From Candidatus Moraniibacteriota bacterium (lineage in GTDB: Bacteria > Patescibacteriota > Minisyncoccia > Moranbacterales > UBA2206): a stretch of DNA of 64,000 nt. Below, one piece after another: positions 9,476-24,288 of this stretch. The stretch spans positions 717 to 64,716 of the forward strand of contig JBAQNM010000006.1 of the NCBI GenBank assembly GCA_049303795.1. Direction: 5' to 3'. Below the pieces are notes generated by a model. The model had not been told where the DNA came from. It did no database searches and worked only from the letters and a program-made list of their open reading frames with translations. Made by a program: the position numbers and the translations under genes. The number at the start of each line of letters is the position of its first letter. Positions within the stretch are counted from its first letter, which is position 1.

Positions 9476-10243
9476 ATGAAACTAGACAATATTTTGAATC
9501 TATTTAATATTAGAGAAACAGAGAAAGAAATTTTTAAGATTTGCTTTGAATCTGATGGGATTGGGGCTAGCGAAATTGCCAAAAAAATAGGAATTAACCG
9601 CACTTCGACTTATGATTTTTTGGATAATTTGGTTAAAGCCGGTCTAATCATTGAATCACAAAAACAAGGAGTAAAAAAATTTTACGTCCAAAAACCGGAA
9701 AAAATCGAAGAGCTAATTAAAGAAAAAGAAGGAAAAGTTTCAGTTGCTAAAAAATCGATAGAGGATCTTAAAAATAATTTTTACCAAAATAAAAAAAGAA
9801 TTGCCCCAAAAATGCAGTTCTACGAAGGAAAAGAAGAATTACGACAGATGATGAAAGATTTGCTATTATATCAAAACATAACAATCTATTCATTCTGGCC
9901 AATTGAGAATATTATTCAAGCTCTTGGAAAAGATTTTTACAGAGAATTTCATGTAAAAAGAGTCGCTAGTAACATTAAAATTAAAGTTATTTGGCCACAA
10001 AAACATACTAAGCAAAAAGAGAAGCACTCTTTTCTTGAAGGATCTGAAAATTTCAAAAGAGAAATCAGAATCTTACCTGAAGATATAGACTTTAATCTCG
10101 GCTACACTATTTATAGTAATAATGTTAGATTTATGTCCTCTCAAAAAGAAGGCTACGGATTTATAATTGAGAGCCAAGAAATGGCAGATACAATGAAAAA
10201 ACAATTTGAGATTATTTGGAAAATATCTAAACCCTTATCTTAA
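9476..10243 (+). CDS. TrmB-like winged-helix transcriptional regulator, paralog 2 of 9
   Basis: N-terminal wHTH (EKEIFKICFESDGIGASEIAKKIGINRTSTYDFLDNLVKAGLI). C-terminal GYTIYSNNVRFMSSQKEGYGFIIESQEMADTMKKQFEIIWKISKP is shared with the other paralogs. Confidence 0.6.
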   Translation: MKLDNILNLFNIRETEKEIFKICFESDGIGASEIAKKIGINRTSTYDFLDNLVKAGLIIESQKQGVKKFYVQKPEKIEELIKEKEGKVSVAKKSIEDLKNNFYQNKKRIAPKMQFYEGKEELRQMMKDLLLYQNITIYSFWPIENIIQALGKDFYREFHVKRVASNIKIKVIWPQKHTKQKEKHSFLEGSENFKREIRILPEDIDFNLGYTIYSNNVRFMSSQKEGYGFIIESQEMADTMKKQFEIIWKISKPLS

Positions 10244-14527: not shown

Positions 14528-17251
14528 ATGTCAGAAAAGCCTAAAAAACTTATTCTCATTGATGGCAATGCGATCATTCATCGCTCCTATCATGCACTTC
14601 CACCCTTCACCACCAAAAAGGGCGAGTTAGTAAATGCGGTCTATGGTTTCGCTTCAACTGTTATTTCTATCATTGCAAAATTTCAGCCGGAATATATTAT
14701 TGCCACTTTTGATTTGGCCGGACCGACTTTTCGCCATCTGGATTATGCGGAATATAAAGCAACGAGAGTAAAGGCAGACGAAGCGCTTTACGCCCAAATC
14801 CCCCGCGTCAAAGAAGTTGTGCGAGCTTTTGGTATTCCAATTTGCGAAGCGTCTGGTTTTGAAGCGGACGATGTGATTGGAACGCTAACTAAAAAAGCGG
14901 AAGAGAGCACTGAAAATTTGGAAATCATTATTGTCACTGGTGACATGGACACTTTGCAACTAGTTAGTGATAAAACAAAAGTCTACACAATGCGCCGGGG
15001 TCTGACTGACGCAGTGCTCTATGGCAAGCCGGAAATTTTTGACCGCTATTCTCTTTTGCCAGAGCAGTTGATTGATTATAAAGGTCTGCGTGGCGATCCA
15101 TCAGATAATATTCCAGGAGTGAAAGGAATTGGAGAGAAAACCGCCATTGAGCTTTTAAAAACTTACGGTACATTAGAAGGTGTTTATGAGCACTTGGGTG
15201 AAATTAAAAAAAACCTCCAAGAAAAACTGGAGCATGATCGTATGATGGCAATCAAAAGCAAAGAGCTGGCCACTATTTCCAAAGGAGCGCCGGTCGAACT
15301 GGAATTAGAAAAATCCGTTACGCGCGAATATGACAAACCAACCCTGCTCGCCCTTTTTGATGAATTAAATTTTCATAGTCTCAAAAAAAGATTAGGAGGA
15401 GTAGAAAAAAATGCCGGAGAGACTGCTACTGAAAATAAAACTAAAAAAGAAACTGGTGTGAAAGATTTTAAATTTGAACTCGTTTCAGAAAAAAATGCTG
15501 ATGAATTATTAAAAAACATTTCTGAGCAAAGTGAAATCGCCTTAAAATTAAAAATAGTTGGTGAAACCACTCTTAATGCCAAACTACTTGGCATCTCTGT
15601 GGGCTATAAAGCCGGTCGTGTCGCCTATTTTGACTGTGAAGACAAGGCGATTTTTTCAAAGATAAAAACAATCATAGAAAATCCGGAGATTGAAAAAATT
15701 GGATATGATCTAAAAAATGATTTCAAGGTTCTGTATAAAGCGGGTGTAAGTTTGGCCGGCGAGTATTTTGATATTCTCATCAGTAGCTATCTTCTCAATC
15801 CTGGCCGAAAAGTAAACTTGGGTGAGTTAGTTTCTGAATATCTGCACGAGGAAATGGAAATGGAAAATAAAAAAGGCCAACTCGGATTAGAAATCGAATC
15901 GCCAGAAGAAGTGCTGAGAAAAATTTGCAGCGTTTCTGATTATATTTTCAAACTAAAAAAAATTCACGAAGAAGAAATAAAAAAAATCAGCGAAGAACAA
16001 GTCAAAAACAATAATCAAGCAAAAAATATTTTAACCGAAGTTTTTTCCAAAATCGAAATGCCACTGATTGAAGTTTTGGGACAAATGGAGTTGTGGGGTA
16101 TTAAATTAAACACGCTAATTTTCAAAGGCATCTCCGAAACAATCACAGAACGTCTAGCGAAACTCGAACAGTCCATCTATAAATTAAGCGGGGAAACTTT
16201 CAATATTGCTTCGCCTAAACAACTCTCTGAGGTATTATTTGAAAAAATGAAAATTTCGACAGAGGGCTTAAAGAAGGGAAAAACAGGTGTCATTTCTACT
16301 GCCTCGGCAGAGTTGGAAAAATTAAAAGGCGAACATAAAATCGTGGAAAAAATTGAAGAATTCCGCGAAATTTCTAAATTGAAAAATACCTATCTCGATA
16401 CACTTCCTTTGATGGTTGATGAAAATTCTCACTTGCACACCACTTTCAATCAAGCTGTCACGGCCACCGGACGATTATCTTCTTCTGAGCCTAATTTACA
16501 AAATATTCCTATTCGCACCGAACTCGGTCAACTTCTGCGCGTTGCTTTTGTCGCTGAAGATGGTTGGAAATTAATCAGCGCCGATTATTCTCAGATAGAT
16601 TTGCGCGTTGTTGCTCATGTCAGTTCTGATAAAAAAATGATTGAACTTTTTCATGCCGGCGAAGATATTCATCGCGCCACCGCAGCGGAGATAAATAAGA
16701 TTCCCCTTTCCCAAGTTTCCGATAAAATCAGACGAACCGCCAAAGAACTGAATTTTGGCGTGATCTATGGTATGGGTACTTTTGGCTTTGCTTCTCGCAC
16801 CGGAATTTCCAGAGAAGATGCTAAAAAATTCATCGACGCTTATTTTGAAAAATTCCAAGGCGTCGCCACTTATATGCGCGAAATAAAAGAATTTGCTAAA
16901 ACCAATGGTTATGTGGAAACAGAAATTGGACGACGCAGATATCTCCCGGAAATTAACTCCCCTAATTTTCAAGTCCAAAGTGGAGCAGAAAGAATGGCGA
17001 TCAATATGCCGATTCAAGGACTCGCTTCAGATATTATGAAAATTGCGATGCTCAAAGTTCACGAAGAATACAAAAATAATCCGGACGTGAAAATGCTTTT
17101 GCAAATTCATGATGAAATTATTTTGGAAGTGAAAGAAAATGTTGCCAAGGAAATTTCAGAAAAAATAAAAACCATTCTGGAAAACGCCTACACGCTTCGT
17201 GTTCCACTAGTGGCGAATGTGGAAATTGGAGATAATTGGGGGGAGATTTAA
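14528..17251 (+). CDS. polA: DNA polymerase I (5'-3' exonuclease plus polymerase domains)
   Basis: 907 aa. N-terminal 5' nuclease motifs (LILIDGNAIIHRSYHA, GDPSDNIPGVKGIGEKTA). Pol A motifs RRxxKxxNFGxxYG (RRTAKELNFGVIYG) and QIHDEIILE. Confidence 0.95.
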   Translation: MSEKPKKLILIDGNAIIHRSYHALPPFTTKKGELVNAVYGFASTVISIIAKFQPEYIIATFDLAGPTFRHLDYAEYKATRVKADEALYAQIPRVKEVVRAFGIPICEASGFEADDVIGTLTKKAEESTENLEIIIVTGDMDTLQLVSDKTKVYTMRRGLTDAVLYGKPEIFDRYSLLPEQLIDYKGLRGDPSDNIPGVKGIGEKTAIELLKTYGTLEGVYEHLGEIKKNLQEKLEHDRMMAIKSKELATISKGAPVELELEKSVTREYDKPTLLALFDELNFHSLKKRLGGVEKNAGETATENKTKKETGVKDFKFELVSEKNADELLKNISEQSEIALKLKIVGETTLNAKLLGISVGYKAGRVAYFDCEDKAIFSKIKTIIENPEIEKIGYDLKNDFKVLYKAGVSLAGEYFDILISSYLLNPGRKVNLGELVSEYLHEEMEMENKKGQLGLEIESPEEVLRKICSVSDYIFKLKKIHEEEIKKISEEQVKNNNQAKNILTEVFSKIEMPLIEVLGQMELWGIKLNTLIFKGISETITERLAKLEQSIYKLSGETFNIASPKQLSEVLFEKMKISTEGLKKGKTGVISTASAELEKLKGEHKIVEKIEEFREISKLKNTYLDTLPLMVDENSHLHTTFNQAVTATGRLSSSEPNLQNIPIRTELGQLLRVAFVAEDGWKLISADYSQIDLRVVAHVSSDKKMIELFHAGEDIHRATAAEINKIPLSQVSDKIRRTAKELNFGVIYGMGTFGFASRTGISREDAKKFIDAYFEKFQGVATYMREIKEFAKTNGYVETEIGRRRYLPEINSPNFQVQSGAERMAINMPIQGLASDIMKIAMLKVHEEYKNNPDVKMLLQIHDEIILEVKENVAKEISEKIKTILENAYTLRVPLVANVEIGDNWGEI

Positions 17252-17342
17252 AAAATATTATTGACTTTTTTGAAAATAAAAACGCTCGCCGGACCTTGCC
17301 ATTGAGCGTTTAAGCTTGTATTAATCTTTTTTAAACCAGTTT

Positions 17343-17903
17343 TTACTTCAAAACAAATATCAGTTCAACTCCGGATACTTTCAAGACTCTGACATTTTTC
17401 CGTTCGTGCGCAGGCATTTCTACCGGCTGTCCATCTGCACATTGGGACACTTCTTTCTCAACGAATTGTCCTCCGCAGGTCTCACAGATATCCCCGGATT
17501 TTTTCCATTGATTGATCTCTGAGTGGGGGCAGGGTGCTACGCTGATTTCTGCCTTAATAGTGGGGCTTACTTTTTTAATAAAAACCCCCTTGCTGTTGGG
17601 CACCATCGGATTGCCACTGCTCTCATCAAGAAGTTGTGCGGAACCGGAAATTTCGATGCTATGGAAATCCAGGTAGTGCTTTATTGACCATGCGAGATCC
17701 TTATCTTGCCTGACAATACTTTTCTCCGCTTTTTCTTCAAGAGCGTTCAGGCTATTTTCAAACTCCTCAATTTTTGCTTCGAATGCCTCGAATTCATCAT
17801 TCGCAGTAATTTCACCTTCCACCTCAACGCTTTTTTTGAGAACCTTCAATTGATCTTTCATCCCGTTGATTTTTTTCCGCAGAACATCCGCTTCTTCTTT
17901 CAT
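17343..17903 (-). CDS. Hypothetical coiled-coil protein with a C-terminal Cys-rich zinc-ribbon-like segment (CPHS...CETCGG...C)
   Basis: N-terminal heptad-rich acidic/lysine region. C-terminal Cys cluster. The 3' half of the gene is visibly GC-richer than the 5' half. Confidence 0.4.
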   Translation of the reverse strand: MKEEADVLRKKINGMKDQLKVLKKSVEVEGEITANDEFEAFEAKIEEFENSLNALEEKAEKSIVRQDKDLAWSIKHYLDFHSIEISGSAQLLDESSGNPMVPNSKGVFIKKVSPTIKAEISVAPCPHSEINQWKKSGDICETCGGQFVEKEVSQCADGQPVEMPAHERKNVRVLKVSGVELIFVLK

Positions 17904-17931
17904 AACCCTCTCCCTTTTTAAAATTAATAGT

Positions 17932-18510
17932 TTAAATCGAAAATCTCAATCCATGTGCTTCCAAGACATCCCCCAGCTCAGCTAAACCTTTTCGGCCGAA
18001 GTTTTTCATTTTCAACAGTTCACTCTCGGTTTTTTTGGTCAAATCTGCAATTGTAATTATATTGCAATTTCTCAAGATATTTACAACTCTCACTGACAAT
18101 TCATAATTGTCTTCAATCACAACCAGCTGTGAATTATCAAAAGATTCAGATTCCAACTCCCTTGATTTTATCGCAATATTTTCCAATTTTTTCAGCCTAA
18201 GAGGGTTTCTTAATCGCCGGACTGATCCCGCTATATGCACCCTAACAGCTGAAGGCGTTACGCTGTATATCATGGCTATTTCTCTTAAATTATGAGCTTT
18301 ACAATCCAAGCCAAATCTCAATTCTACGACCTCCCTTCGCGAAATCTTATTTGTCCTCTTTTTATTGTTATCGCCAACAAACCCCAGGGAATCAAGAATT
18401 CTTTTAACAATATCCTTATCGCTTTCACTAAGCGCTTTGATATTTTCTCTTGGAATTCCTGTGATTTCTGCCAAAAAAAATGCATATCCTCCTAAAAGCA
18501 TTTTTTTCAT
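17932..18510 (-). CDS. DNA-binding protein with a sigma-70 region-4-like HTH fused to an RNA polymerase alpha-subunit C-terminal-domain-like HhH module
   Basis: RREVVELRFGL...REIAMIYSVTPSAVRVHIAGSVRRLR resembles sigma region 4.2. LSVRVVNILRNCNIITIADLTKKTESELLKMKNFGRKGLAELGDVLEAHGL closely resembles the RpoA alpha-CTD (LTVRSANCLK...ELLKTPNLGKKSL.EIKDVL). Confidence 0.5.
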   Translation of the reverse strand: MKKMLLGGYAFFLAEITGIPRENIKALSESDKDIVKRILDSLGFVGDNNKKRTNKISRREVVELRFGLDCKAHNLREIAMIYSVTPSAVRVHIAGSVRRLRNPLRLKKLENIAIKSRELESESFDNSQLVVIEDNYELSVRVVNILRNCNIITIADLTKKTESELLKMKNFGRKGLAELGDVLEAHGLRFSI

Positions 18511-18619
18511 AATAATCCTCTTTTTATGGTTAAGCTACGGGTTTCTTGCCTATATAAATTGTCAATGAACGGACCCTTAATGTAAGCAAATATCCTTAAG
18601 TTTGTCAATTTTTTAAAGG

Positions 18620-19363
18620 CTATCTATGATTCACATACTGCTTCGACCTTTTCCAGATTATTTCAAACATTGCCGTTAAGGCATTCTTTACTTTAATATT
18701 TTCAATGACAATACACAGACTGTCTTCCGGAATCATAACAACAGTTTTATTTGAAAATAGATAAAGCATAATTTTAAAATCATCAAACATGGCGCTAGTT
18801 CGAATTTGAATTTTGTGATTTTGAATAACAAACTCATCTTTTTCACTGGAAGGAATAATGGTACGGGATTTTATTCCTAGCTTTTTCTTCTCTGTCAATA
18901 AGTCTTTCCAAAAATCATAGCCTAACTTGAAAGCAGAACGAATATCCCCTTCTATTGTTAATAGCTCGTCTTTTTCTGGATTTAAAACGATAATCTCTTT
19001 TAATGTTTCTTTCAGACCCGTGTTTGTATCATAAAATCTTATTTTATTTCCAGCCGATTTTTGCTCAAATGCATTTTCCAATTGAGGCATTAGAGCATCC
19101 AAAAGATAATACTGATCCTTGATTCGTGAGAGCAGTATCTTTGGATTTTTTATATAATACCTCTTTCTTTTTTTGATTATCTCCATGGCAATCAAATCTT
19201 TCTCTGCCATTTGATCAATCACTAAATATAGGGATGTTCTTTTGATTCCTGTATTTTTTGATATTTCCTGAAGAAATTGCGGTCCTTTTTGAAGAAGGGA
19301 AAGATAAATTTTTCCTTGACTGTCAGGCAAGCCAATTTTTTCTAGTTGTTCTTTTGTTATCAT
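18620..19363 (-). CDS. TrmB-like winged-helix transcriptional regulator, paralog 3 of 9
   Basis: N-terminal wHTH (GKIYLSLLQKGPQFLQEISKNTGIKRTSLYLVIDQMAEKDLI). C-terminus ...LTAMFEIIWKRSK. Confidence 0.6.
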   Translation of the reverse strand: MITKEQLEKIGLPDSQGKIYLSLLQKGPQFLQEISKNTGIKRTSLYLVIDQMAEKDLIAMEIIKKRKRYYIKNPKILLSRIKDQYYLLDALMPQLENAFEQKSAGNKIRFYDTNTGLKETLKEIIVLNPEKDELLTIEGDIRSAFKLGYDFWKDLLTEKKKLGIKSRTIIPSSEKDEFVIQNHKIQIRTSAMFDDFKIMLYLFSNKTVVMIPEDSLCIVIENIKVKNALTAMFEIIWKRSKQYVNHR

Positions 19364-19541
19364 AATAATGACGTCAATAATGACGATAAATTTATAATAT
19401 TATTCAATATAACCTTTAAATATAGTATGATATATTATTTAGTTTGTCAAATAAATTGACTAAATATAGAAATAACATACAATCAGACTATCTTTCAATT
19501 GGAAAGATGCACATTAACAATTTATAAAAAGGGAGAATACT

Positions 19542-20660
19542 ATGAAAATAGGAGACTTAGAAAGATTTCAGGCAACAAAAAGATTACCCAAAAGACTTAT
19601 TGAGGATATTCCTGATTTAGTAGCGGCAGTTATTAATCGGGAGTGCAATTTAAGTTGCAAACACTGTGGTTGGGCACCAAAAAATAGTGTTTGCGAAAAA
19701 TATCTCAATAGGGATGGCTGGGATAAGTTCATTGAAAGCTTTTGTCTAGTTGGGAATAAAAAAGAAGAAAAAACAATCGTGATTTCTGGGCGAGAGCCAT
19801 TATATGATCTGGATTCAAGAAAAAAACTCATATCTATTCTATTGAGCTCTCGAAAGCAAGGGATTTATTCCGGATTTATCACAAATGGAATTAATCTGCC
19901 TTTTTTGTTCGAAGAGTATCCTTATTTTATTCCGGATTTTATGGATATCAGCCTTGAGGGGCCAAAAGAAATTAATGATAAAATTCGAGGAGCAGGATCT
20001 TTTGAAAAAACTTTGGCTGGTCTAAAGATAGCTCTTAAAAAAGTGGAAAAATTGTTTATTTCCACCACTGTAACAGCTATTAACATTCAGACTATTCCGA
20101 ATTTTGTTCAGTATTTGGCTCGGTTGGGAGCTAAGCGGTTAGTTTTTCATTCTCTAATACCAGGAGAATTTGTTGCGCCAGGAATTCAGACTGAAGATGA
20201 CGACTTTCTTGAAATGATAAAGAAAATAAATCAATTAGCGATTAAGCTAGAATTAGAACAAGTCATTTTTGATTTATATCCACCGTCTTTTAAAAATTTC
20301 CCCATGGTAATTGAGAAAATAAAGCCGGAAAATCTATTTATTGATAATTATATCGTGATGCCACTAGCTTCAAATGTATTTATCCGATTTGTTAATCTCA
20401 TGGAGTCATACGCTATTTCTTTTCTGGTTTCTCCGGAAGGCTATACTATTACCCCGCTGGAAATGAGAATGATAAATTATCTCAAGAACAAGGAAAATTG
20501 CCATCATGTTCAAAATATTTTGGCTTGGGATGGAAACCCTTATGCTAATGAAATAGTAAAATTGGCAAAAAACATTCCTGATATTTGTTTTGAGCAAAAA
20601 TGTTTCAAATTTTGTCTGGGGCAAAACTCATTTTGCCCATTATCTAAAAACAAAAAATAA
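19542..20660 (+). CDS. Radical SAM enzyme with a C-terminal Cys-rich auxiliary-cluster (SPASM/twitch-like) region. Candidate peptide-modifying maturase.
   Basis: CNLSCKHC (CX3CX2C) at residues about 36-43. GGE-like ISGREPL. C-terminal Cys cluster NCHH...DIC-FEQKC-FKFC-LGQNSFC. Confidence 0.7.
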   Translation: MKIGDLERFQATKRLPKRLIEDIPDLVAAVINRECNLSCKHCGWAPKNSVCEKYLNRDGWDKFIESFCLVGNKKEEKTIVISGREPLYDLDSRKKLISILLSSRKQGIYSGFITNGINLPFLFEEYPYFIPDFMDISLEGPKEINDKIRGAGSFEKTLAGLKIALKKVEKLFISTTVTAINIQTIPNFVQYLARLGAKRLVFHSLIPGEFVAPGIQTEDDDFLEMIKKINQLAIKLELEQVIFDLYPPSFKNFPMVIEKIKPENLFIDNYIVMPLASNVFIRFVNLMESYAISFLVSPEGYTITPLEMRMINYLKNKENCHHVQNILAWDGNPYANEIVKLAKNIPDICFEQKCFKFCLGQNSFCPLSKNKK

Positions 20661-20942: not shown

Positions 20943-21692
20943 TTATTTTGTTAAGCTCCAAATCAAATCAAATTTGCTTTTCTCGCTTTTAGCTATTTCT
21001 TCACTTTCGATTTTAACGGCAATTAGCTCTTTTTTGGAGGTGAAAATTGCTACTGTATTTTGATATATTAAAACAAAAGATGGGTGATAAAAATCTGCTG
21101 GTAGAAATTTTATTTCTCGTAAATCGCTAGCATTTTTTTCACTCGAAAAAAAATCTTTAGGAAAAAATTCTGCCACTTCTTTCTCAAAATATAAAGCTTT
21201 TATCTTGGAATTATTTTTTATTCTTTCGGGAATATAGTATTTTTGATCATATTCTTGCCCAACTATTTCATAAATTTTTTTGAGAGATCCAATAGCTCGG
21301 ATAGTTTCGTTCATTTTTAATGATTCATTGGCAATTGAAATGTAACCTTCTTTTCCCTCATACATAGTCACTCTCGGCTTGTAATAAGAGTTTTTTTGAA
21401 TAGCATTAAGTTCAGGGATTATTTCATTGACCTCGCTCAATCTTTTTTTTAATTGATCAGAAAGCAAAGTTGGTGACGAAGCAACAAAACGCAAACCATT
21501 GGGTAATTTAAAATTTCCCATCAAACCTTTTTCTTCAAGATTTTTTGCAATCAAATATGCTGAACTTCTTTTAATCCCAGCTATTTTAGCGATTCTGGCT
21601 AGAGGTGCTTCGCCTAATTTCAAACCAGCCAGATATAGTCGTGTTTCTTCATTGCTTAGTCCATAATTTTTCAAAACTTGTTCAATATTCAT
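20943..21692 (-). CDS. TrmB-like winged-helix transcriptional regulator, paralog 4 of 9
   Basis: N-terminal wHTH (ETRLYLAGLKLGEAPLARIAKIAGIKRSSAYLIAKNLEEKGLM). C-terminus ...SKFDLIWSLTK. Confidence 0.6.
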   Translation of the reverse strand: MNIEQVLKNYGLSNEETRLYLAGLKLGEAPLARIAKIAGIKRSSAYLIAKNLEEKGLMGNFKLPNGLRFVASSPTLLSDQLKKRLSEVNEIIPELNAIQKNSYYKPRVTMYEGKEGYISIANESLKMNETIRAIGSLKKIYEIVGQEYDQKYYIPERIKNNSKIKALYFEKEVAEFFPKDFFSSEKNASDLREIKFLPADFYHPSFVLIYQNTVAIFTSKKELIAVKIESEEIAKSEKSKFDLIWSLTK

Positions 21693-23502: not shown

Positions 23503-24288
23503 ATGGATATAATAAAAATCTTAGAAAAAATCAATTGCACGGATTTTGAAGCCAGAACTTTCCTGGCGCTCTTGGAGGAATCAAAAGGCGCGAGCGTTTT
23601 GGGTTTGAGTAAAAAGTTAAATCTGCCTCGTCCTACAATTTATGGTCATATAGAATCTTTGATTGAAAAAGGGTTGGCAAAAAAAGGCGTGGGAGAAACC
23701 GGGGCAGTTTTTTATGCTGAAGATAAGGAAAATATTCTAAGCATTTATAATGAAAAAATTGAAGAAATGAAAAAGGCCCGGGAAAATTTTTCTGAGGCAT
23801 TTAAAAATAAAGATTATGGAGCCACTTATCAGCCAAAATTAATCCACTATTCCACTAAAGATGCTGCCAAATCAATTTTGCGCGATATTTTGAGATCAAG
23901 AGAAAAGGAAACTTATTGGTTCTGGCCTCTCAAAGAAATGCTGAAAGTAATTCCGGAAGAGGTTCTGCAAAATTTTAATGAAGAAAGGGTAAGAAGAAAA
24001 ATTTGGACAAATATACTTTGGCCACCAAAAAGAAAAATTGATATAAAAAAATATCCCTTGCTTGGGCCTTGGAACGAGAAAGAATCTTTGCGCAGGATAA
24101 AAATTTTACCGGAAAATATCGATCAGACTTTAGGTTATGCGATTTATGGCGACAAAGTAGCCTTCATTTCTTCCGATAGGGAAAATTACGGCATGATTAT
24201 TGACAGCCGAGAACTTGCCCAAACTCTGAAAGCTCAATTTGATTATTTTTGGAAAATATCAAGACTTATAAAACAAGAATCAGTCTAA
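23503..24288 (+). CDS. TrmB-like winged-helix transcriptional regulator, paralog 5 of 9
   Basis: N-terminal wHTH (FEARTFLALLEESKGASVLGLSKKLNLPRPTIYGHIESLIEKGL). C-terminal GYAIYGDKVAFISSDRENYGMIIDSRELAQTLKAQFDYFWKISR. Confidence 0.6.
   Translation: MDIIKILEKINCTDFEARTFLALLEESKGASVLGLSKKLNLPRPTIYGHIESLIEKGLAKKGVGETGAVFYAEDKENILSIYNEKIEEMKKARENFSEAFKNKDYGATYQPKLIHYSTKDAAKSILRDILRSREKETYWFWPLKEMLKVIPEEVLQNFNEERVRRKIWTNILWPPKRKIDIKKYPLLGPWNEKESLRRIKILPENIDQTLGYAIYGDKVAFISSDRENYGMIIDSRELAQTLKAQFDYFWKISRLIKQESV

Follow-up and report, generated by a model that had tools for sequence, protein, structure and literature searches.

A fusion of sigma-70 region 4 and the RNA polymerase alpha C-terminal domain in a Candidatus Moraniibacteriota genome: a putative family of transcription regulators

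A 192-residue protein of an uncultured, tiny-genome bacterium was found to join, in one free chain, a helix-turn-helix (HTH) of the primary-sigma region 4.2 type and a bona fide C-terminal domain of the alpha subunit of RNA polymerase (alpha-CTD). Its gene, gene A, is located in a 64,000-nt stretch of DNA, referred to as the window, from a metagenome-assembled genome (MAG) of Candidatus Moraniibacteriota, a member of the Candidate Phyla Radiation (CPR). Lacking both sigma region 2 and the alpha N-terminal domain, gene A is neither a sigma factor nor RpoA. The reading we favour, with a probability of roughly 0.55, is that its product is a free, small, bipartite DNA-binding transcription regulator built from two polymerase modules. 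What appears to be new in gene A is a putative HTH regulator made of polymerase parts, an architecture for which no published description was found and whose function we infer from sequence.

Results

Gene A encodes two RNA polymerase domains in a single chain

Gene A and its parts are located in the window as follows:
17932..18510, minus strand: gene A, sigma-region-4/alpha-CTD fusion, 192 aa (open reading frame (ORF) and Pfam; stop codon at 17932-17934)
18343..18510, minus strand: residues 1-56, family-specific N-terminal helical region with helices 7-17 and 29-40 and a lineage-specific loop at about 44-56 (model and alignment)
18169..18342, minus strand: residues 57-114, sigma-70 region 4.2 HTH and C-terminal helix, LRFGL ... 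LRNPLRLKKL (Pfam, NCBIfam and hhalign)
18124..18168, minus strand: residues 115-129, flexible linker of about 15 residues (predicted local distance difference test, pLDDT, below 50 at 117-125)
17935..18123, minus strand: residues 130-192, RNA polymerase alpha-CTD, double helix-hairpin-helix (Pfam, PDB phmmer and Foldseek)

In a Pfam search at E values up to 1, only two families exceeded their curated cut-offs: RNA_pol_A_CTD (51.8 bits against a cut-off of 23.8, E 6.9e-14, residues 135-184) and Sigma70_r4 (26.7 bits against 24.1, E 4e-6, residues 59-102). The initial annotation of this DNA, which had read the protein at 17932-18510 as a sigma region 4.2-like HTH joined to an alpha-CTD, was therefore correct on both domains. 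The same search gave no match to Sigma70_r2 or Sigma70_r3, to RNA_pol_L or RNA_pol_A_bac, or to GerE. The parts by which sigma and alpha attach to the polymerase are absent from gene A: no such family was matched and 192 residues leave no room for them.

Other searches gave the same picture. Among the NCBIfam models, the C-terminal part of gene A matched those of rpoA only, covering merely their last 60-85 positions with scores far under the cut-offs, and residues 57-113 matched RpoD/SigA models. A sequence search of the PDB with phmmer retrieved alpha-CTDs (E 4e-12) and sigma region 4 (E 3.5e-5). The sigma assignment also held in a profile comparison: a profile of 16 family sequences was aligned by hhalign with the C-terminus of E. 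coli sigma70 at a probability of 98.8% (E 5e-17), query residues 59-113 corresponding to sigma70 556-611, that is, to region 4.2.

The AlphaFold2 model of gene A (pLDDT 81.6) consists of two helical domains and a disordered linker, the length of which differs between relatives in the alignment. Helices in the sigma part were modelled at residues 58-66, 75-81, 86-100 and 103-114. The C-terminal domain was superposed by Foldseek on 9zum, 3k4g, 1z3e and 3n97 with target-normalised template modelling (TM) scores of 0.72-0.87 and root mean square deviations of 1.3-1.9 Å, and its identity to the alpha-CTDs of solved structures was 42-46% (Caulobacter alpha-CTD, Foldseek). By profile, PDB and Foldseek evidence the likeness far exceeds a generic helix-hairpin-helix resemblance, which the initial annotation had named as a refuting outcome. 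Residues R141, N144, G172 and K174 are the equivalents of E. coli R265, N268, G296 and K298.

The N-terminal region was modelled with high confidence (pLDDT 86-92 at residues 11-40) and carries a motif common to gene A and its relatives, Y..L...VTG....D.LPL...D...I...L.SLG. Its assignment to sigma region 3.2/4.1, which is suggestive by eye, was rejected: hhalign gave no alignment of the first 58 residues to the C-terminal half of sigma70.

Since gene A is made solely of C-terminal pieces of two larger proteins, it could be a non-functional fragment, either a remnant or an assembly chimera, of the 3' ends of rpoD and rpoA. The gene list of the NCBI record for this contig, JBAQEY010000068.1 (2394-2972 = window 17932-18510), indeed has no gene at its position, and the protein is known only from Logan assemblies; PGAP, the NCBI annotation pipeline, may have dropped the gene or flagged it as a partial RpoA. 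Against such an origin, the DNA of that record is identical and its ORF intact; the NCBI assembly and three Logan assemblies, made independently from different runs, have the same DNA here; the ORF has a Shine-Dalgarno sequence; an identity of 42-46% to RpoA of solved structures does not suit a recent fragment; the structure model is confident; and the same architecture was met again in 40 proteins and four paralogues, described below. These observations effectively refute the explanation.

The architecture recurs in a metagenomic family and in at least four paralogues

An exhaustive HMMER search of 1.84 billion representatives with gene A yielded 4,507 matches at E values up to 0.001, mostly to the alpha-CTD only. 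The family counts given here are drawn from 274 fetched proteins, labelled with P numbers. A sigma-4 domain directly followed by an alpha-CTD was found in 40 of these 274, gene A included, some of them with two or more alpha-CTDs, and precomputed Pfam annotation lists both PF04545 and PF03118 for many of the 40. The family surfaced only through this search; a word-indexed homology search with gene A returned nothing besides gene A.

Relatives that match over the full length (P0010, P0009, P0022, P0053, P0077, P0107, P0115 and P0145) have 180-250 residues and 33-40% identity to gene A. They share its order of elements: the N-terminal motif, region 4.2 with LRFGL/LRHP, the linker and the alpha-CTD. 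Among the longer relatives, some carry a sigma-70 family annotation.

In the genome that carries gene A the family has at least five diverged members, gene A and at least four paralogues, with 26-39% identity to one another. The paralogues are located as follows:
L001, 1702-2349, 3969-4538 and 4626-5207: paralogues of gene A, same Candidatus Moraniibacteriota genome
L004, 6001-6741: paralogue of gene A, same genome

Three of them (P0010, P0274 and P0272) are clustered within 3.5 kb on one contig and P0009 is on another. The four carry the same four NCBI accession series and the automatic NCBI name DNA-directed RNA polymerase subunit alpha C-terminal domain-containing protein. They were assigned to the genome of gene A because the locus-tag prefix WAV31_ is common to gene B, the gene following gene A, and to the genes flanking the paralogues, and because their contigs and the window contig were found in the same Sequence Read Archive (SRA) runs; the source samples are represented by SRR28062512 and related runs. 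Four NCBI assemblies have these proteins in common, and the MAGs GCA_049286985.1, GCA_049296135.1 and GCA_049305975.1 were encountered in the analysis. We take this genome to hold about 1,300 genes, assuming from tag number 06495 that PGAP numbers in steps of five. Neither the paralogues, nor the wider metagenomic family, nor the finding that gene B is not a conserved partner had figured in the initial annotation. Upstream of the paralogues only ordinary TTGACT-17-TAnnAT promoter-like sequences were seen.

A profile scan of named genomes gave 80 loci, all ordinary rpoA, the full-coverage matches being RpoA proteins of 340-370 aa. A second scan of named genomes with the family alignment gave pattern matches with no relative among them, and scans of metagenome contigs with the family alignment and with P0115 gave no useful match.

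A phage origin was considered and rejected. A tblastn search against 50,697 phage records gave alpha-CTD-sized matches only, mostly to rpoA (bacterial contamination) or to unannotated gut contigs. PHROGs matched only a generic sigma-factor family, via region 4, and the BFVD fold search was weak, with all E values at or above 5e-3. PADLOC gave no defence-system match for gene A.

One relative has an informative gene context. P0115 (L011 5001-5573; JGI 3300052918, Ga0480581_006270; also on L012) is located between dnaK and dnaJ, downstream of grpE, on a contig whose first gene is the tail of rpoA, coding for its alpha-CTD; rplQ, rplM and rpsI come next. Because the organism's own rpoA keeps its alpha-CTD, P0115 would be an addition to the polymerase and not a replacement part. 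Its placement may link the family to regulation of the chaperone operon. The short contigs of P0036 and P0136 show no gene context.

Other members of the family were observed in different settings. The distant member P0168 (228 aa; L013 486-1172, JGI 3300009826) shares its contig with an MT-A70 methyltransferase and an ATPase resembling DUF87 and DNA-transfer proteins of type IV secretion systems (T4SS), and P0183 and P0185 have N-terminal excisionase-like and Cro/CI-like HTH domains; part of the family may travel on mobile elements. P0039 (408 aa; NCBI MEK6839820.1), which has a sigma-4 domain and two alpha-CTDs and is annotated 'sigma-70 family RNA polymerase sigma factor', comes from an 813,862-bp contig of a MAG labelled Nanoarchaeota archaeon. 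This could be either a misclassified MAG or a DPANN archaeon with bacterial polymerase-derived modules.

Free-standing alpha-CTDs also occur in several other architectures: P0003 (1031 aa), P0004 (806 aa), P0005, P0008 (1396 aa), P0013 and P0152-P0159. These include tandem arrays, of which Pfam scored 11 copies in one protein, a ResIII helicase-like protein that ends in four copies, two to five copies at the N-terminus ahead of a sigma-4-like HTH and a long C-terminal region, and a tetratricopeptide repeat (TPR) protein with an alpha-CTD from Phycisphaerae.

DNA-contact residues of the alpha-CTD are conserved and recognition helices diverge

Conservation was scored over the 40 proteins with a sigma-4 domain followed by an alpha-CTD, using E. 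coli residue numbering. In the alpha-CTD, the R265 equivalent is R in 38/40, the N268 equivalent N in 35/40, the G296 equivalent G in 37/40, the K298 equivalent K or R in 32/40 and the S299 equivalent S or T in 31/40. The DNA-contact positions are nearly invariant and are the best-conserved positions of the family; R265 of the alpha-CTD is a DNA-contact residue (PMC5511352). In paralogue P0010 the R265 equivalent is W and the G296 equivalent is K.

The sigma part is less uniform. The positions of sigma70 that contact the -35 element are E585, R586, R588 and Q589, and their equivalents are kept in 19/40, 29/40, 26/40 and 29/40 proteins, respectively. As the family consensus is that of primary sigma region 4.2, the sigma part was clearly derived from this region, judging by sequence. 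The five proteins of the Candidatus Moraniibacteriota genome have different residues at the equivalents of sigma70 584, 585, 586, 588 and 589: PSARV in gene A, and HAASQ, STAAR, GANAE and RPRDY in the paralogues.

In the holoenzyme, alpha D259/E261 contacts sigma70 R603 at the proximal UP subsite (PMC5511352; PMC4496709). Gene A has R105 at the R603 equivalent and E137 at the E261 equivalent. Across the family the former is R in 27/36 and the latter D or E in 27/40, and the two are weakly associated in being kept or lost (Fisher p 0.03, with no correction for phylogeny). This is a hint that the contact pair between sigma-4 and alpha-CTD may have been retained.

The conserved alpha-CTD contact residues together with five different recognition helices favour DNA binding with diversified specificity. 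In such a protein the HTH would bind a specific major-groove site and the tethered alpha-CTD an adjacent A/T-rich minor groove, so that one chain would reproduce the way in which the holoenzyme sets alpha-CTD and sigma region 4 beside each other on UP-element/-35 DNA. At or near promoters, gene A might then repress by occlusion or alter the recruitment of RNA polymerase. The paralogues, with their diversified recognition helices, would address different sites and could form a lineage-specific family of transcription factors in a regulator-poor genome. The position of P0115, in a grpE-dnaK-X-dnaJ cluster beside an rpoA with its own alpha-CTD, fits an accessory regulator and not a replacement subunit.

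Several observations weigh against this reading. The predicted DNA binding of gene A draws on a single line of evidence, residue conservation, and the conserved surface residues of alpha-CTD and sigma-4 also serve protein-protein contacts, which makes a protein-binding role possible. The recognition helix of gene A lacks most of the canonical -35-contact residues, and for this reason its target is not predictable. The four paralogues miss Pfam Sigma70_r4 at E below 1e-3, so that for them the sigma-4 call depends on how they align with gene A. The predicted TM score (pTM) of the gene A model was 0.53 and, with the disordered linker, the model carries no information on the relative arrangement of the domains. 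No conserved gene neighbourhood was seen for the family in the loci examined. In the window, no operator motif was found, and the sequence ATTGACAA, which occurs twice upstream of gene A (see below), is not enriched (6 copies against 5.65 expected).

We consider it unlikely that gene A is instead an accessory factor docked on RNA polymerase or a surrogate sigma region 4. Such a protein would place its sigma part on the beta-flap tip helix, provide an extra alpha-CTD or act as partner of a region-4-less sigma, and so retarget polymerase to a promoter subset; split or two-subunit sigmas are exemplified by B. subtilis SigO-RsoA and phage T4 gp55/gp33. The sigma part of gene A does keep region 4.2 and the C-terminal helix to the natural C-terminus of primary sigmas (sigma70 604-611, LRHPxRxKxL), model helix 29-40 packs where region 4.1 would be, and NCBI calls the longer relative P0039 a sigma-70 family sigma factor. 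However, the first 58 residues are not alignable to region 3.2/4.1, no region-2-like partner gene is found beside gene A or its paralogues, and five paralogues with divergent recognition helices resemble transcription factors more than polymerase subunits.

A decoy role, which the initial annotation had suggested along with that of an adaptor, is less likely than DNA binding, and we regard it as quite improbable. Class I and class II activators classically target sigma region 4 and the alpha-CTD, and a protein with both could soak up activators, anti-sigma factors and the like, damping activated transcription without binding DNA. Gene A retains part of the basic character of the activator patch of sigma-4, with R98, R99 and R101 as the equivalents of sigma70 R596, K597 and R599. 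The alpha-CTD DNA-contact residues would be needless for a decoy, yet they are the best-conserved positions of the family. Close mimicry of host domains would also be expected, whereas the paralogues have diverged (26-39% mutual identity; 42-46% to solved alpha-CTDs) and differ in their recognition helices.

If the favoured reading, a free DNA-binding regulator, is extended to the whole family, the sigma4-alphaCTD proteins might be a previously unrecognised class of trans-acting readers of upstream promoter DNA: fused, free -35 and UP-element modules that compete for promoters, bookmark them or hand them over to the holoenzyme, expanded to a principal regulator family of at least one CPR lineage (five or more paralogues in about 1,300 genes). 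This extension is possible but doubtful.

Gene B is an orphan gene that follows gene A

Genes A and B are arranged head-to-tail on the minus strand and are separated by 28 nt in the ORF list. The following features surround them:
17343..17903, minus strand: gene B, orphan protein, 186 aa (ORF)
18516..18522, minus strand: Shine-Dalgarno-like AAGAGGA before gene A (read from the sequence)
17906..17914, minus strand: Shine-Dalgarno-like GGGAGAGGG before gene B (read from the sequence)
18579..18608, minus strand: promoter-like TTGACA-18-TACATT in the 109-nt gap between a TrmB-like gene and gene A (consensus scan, 10/12 matches)
17272..17311, minus strand: terminator-like hairpin AAACGCUC...GAGCGUUU with a U-run, 3' of gene B, common to gene B and polA, which lie tail-to-tail (position and U-run read from the sequence)

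The 186-aa ORF announced downstream of gene A by the initial annotation is present on the minus strand at 17343-17903, preceded by the ribosome-binding site GGGAGAGGG. The same annotation had described the two genes as an operon. Co-transcription is plausible because they share a strand, the gap is short, RNA folding found no stable hairpin in its 28 nt, and a terminator-like hairpin with a U-run occurs only after gene B and not after gene A; gene B is probably co-transcribed with gene A. The two-gene transcription unit is a prediction from the sequence, and each gene has its own Shine-Dalgarno element. The hairpin 3' of gene B had a folding energy of -13.8 kcal/mol and a z score of -1.2, which is not significant by itself, and the promoter-like site upstream of gene A is a consensus match only and not evidence of function.

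Two copies of ATTGACAA are located upstream of gene A, at 18559-18566 and 18602-18609 on the minus strand, 43 nt apart and each beside an A/T-rich stretch. They could be tandem -35-like elements or operator sites. No credible non-coding RNA was found with Rfam at 16800-19800.

The product of gene B, 'hypothetical protein WAV31_06495' at NCBI, belongs to no Pfam, NCBIfam or PHROG family, and a word-indexed search of 5.8 billion proteins for homologues returned only gene B itself. No gene-B-like ORF was found beside the four paralogues or P0115. The sole PADLOC match was a weak, coiled-coil one to LmuB (E 0.003). Gene B looks like a real ORF but is an orphan; a functional connection with gene A is not demonstrable, and gene B is not a conserved partner.

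An N-terminal coiled coil and a C-terminal Cys cluster had been proposed for this protein. The Cys residues are there (125, 140, 143 and 155, with His at 127 and 166), forming a cluster of C125, H127, C140, C143 and C155. The helical N-terminus was seen in a single-sequence AlphaFold2 model with an overall pLDDT of 50.7, in which helices 2-29 and 32-80 reach 65-79 and the remainder is unreliable; residues 1-80 may, with low confidence, be helical and coiled-coil-like. A zinc ribbon, in contrast, found no profile or structural support: gene B has one CxxC only (C140, C143), plus C125-x-H127 and C155, it has no homologue, and no zinc-ribbon profile reached its threshold, Zn_ribbon_19 scoring 11.7 bits (E 0.3) where its cut-off is 30.8.

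The 3' half of gene B had also been described as abruptly GC-rich. A GC peak does exist: GC is 0.52 at 17400-17549 against a window mean of 0.34, within the top 0.5% of 150-nt windows. The two halves of the gene are, however, nearly equal in GC at third codon positions (GC3; 0.44 in the first half, 0.47 in the second) and differ at codon position 2 (0.21 vs 0.39). The contrast is due to amino acid composition, a K/E-rich helix against a tail rich in G, P, A, C and S, and so the mosaic origin suggested for gene B is not indicated. GC3 is raised along the whole gene (neighbours 0.22-0.35), which would suit an orphan gene that is young or acquired.

In gene order and 28-nt spacing, genes A and B are similar to the established pattern of sigma/anti-sigma operons, and the product of gene B contains four Cys and is predicted to form a long helical hairpin. 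Gene B might on these grounds be thought to bind the sigma-4 domain in gene A and keep it inhibited, a signal (redox, metal or other) then releasing it. We hold such a pair to be very unlikely: gene B matched no anti-sigma Pfam family and has no homologue among the 5.8 billion proteins; the HxxxCxxC motif of zinc anti-sigma factors was not found in it, there being no His three residues ahead of C140 and the Cys cluster being C-terminal; a gene-B-like neighbour is absent at the four paralogues and at P0115; and GC3 is unequal, 0.44-0.47 in gene B vs 0.35 in gene A.

Gene neighbourhood

The neighbours named in the initial annotation were recovered: Pfam identified the TrmB-like gene (18620-19363) and the radical SAM gene (19542-20660), along with polA and ruvA. 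The wider surroundings are ordinary chromosomal genes (Mur ligase, FemAB, a major facilitator superfamily (MFS) transporter, ruvA, polA, fpg, four TrmB-like regulators and the radical SAM gene). Gene A is outside the ribosomal-protein/rpoA/rplQ cluster, and no rpoA, sigma factor or gene A paralogue was found within the 64-kb window.

Four TrmB-family winged-helix regulators of about 250 aa are located within 15 kb, at 9476-10243 (plus strand), 18620-19363 (minus), 20943-21692 (minus) and 23503-24288 (plus). Each scored 35-39 bits on Pfam TrmB, and they represent a second expanded family of small regulators in this genome. The radical SAM protein at 19542-20660 (plus strand), encoded between two TrmB-like genes, matched PADLOC models of prokaryotic viperin (pVip) at E 4e-8 and 1.5e-7. 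It may be an antiviral enzyme of the viperin kind, or the match may be one of radical SAM proteins in general.

Discussion

In RNA polymerase, upstream promoter DNA is read by two modules, sigma region 4 and the alpha-CTD, and it is mainly these that activators target. A core-free family in which these two modules are fused would, if the reading proposed for gene A is true, represent a new way of building a promoter-directed regulator and an example of polymerase parts recycled as transcription factors. Regulation in CPR bacteria is almost unknown and, as recognisable regulators are few in them, a five-member family provides a concrete handle on gene control. Proteins of the gene A type are small, predicted to fold well and suited to DNA-binding assays.

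The findings also concern annotation. Such genes can be absent from the gene list of a public contig record and, where listed, carry only generic names ('alpha C-terminal domain-containing protein') or sigma-factor labels. In the literature, no natural sigma-region-4/alpha-CTD fusion, free alpha-CTD protein or CPR transcription regulator was found described; most subscription journals were outside the coverage of this search, so that the absence is not proof.

Comparison with known systems

The closest known counterpart of gene A is the pair formed by the alpha-CTD and sigma region 4 in the holoenzyme, which bind neighbouring DNA sites and touch each other (PMC4496709; PMC5511352). PDB 3n97, judging by its title, has the two domains next to each other on UP/-35 DNA. 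Both folds recur in gene A, together with the key residues R141, N144, G172, K174, E137 and R105. Unlike the holoenzyme pair, gene A has both domains in one 192-aa chain, with sigma-4 N-terminal to the alpha-CTD, and, as sigma regions 1-3 and the alpha N-terminal domain are missing, it is not built into the polymerase.

With factors of the sigma-70 family, gene A shares the region 4.2 HTH, the LRFGL and LR(H/N)P motifs and the C-terminal helix. It differs from primary sigma factors in its recognition helix, which has P, S, A, R and V at the equivalents of sigma70 584, 585, 586, 588 and 589, and from sigma-70 factors in general, split sigmas included, in having no region 2 or 3 and no neighbouring gene that supplies one. 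We know of no characterised sigma factor with a fused alpha-CTD.

By analogy, gene A most probably works like a regulator of the LuxR/GerE/NarL type. These proteins likewise have a small, tetrahelical HTH fold that serves as a free output domain for DNA binding and is linked to a second module. Gene A has no GerE match at E values up to 1, however, and its partner module is an alpha-CTD and not a receiver or ligand-binding domain.

Proteins named in databases as containing an alpha-CTD, uncharacterised and found in bacteria and phages, resemble gene A in having this domain outside RpoA, and weak similarities to phage proteins were seen in BFVD. Gene A and 39 others differ from them by a preceding sigma region 4 and the conserved N-terminal motif.

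Engineered chimeras of alpha and sigma region 4, used in bacterial two-hybrid systems, have established that region 4 placed on the alpha linker folds and works as a transplantable module. In those chimeras a complete alpha N-terminal domain carries region 4 in place of the alpha-CTD, whereas in gene A, a natural protein, both C-terminal modules were kept and the N-terminal domain was dropped.

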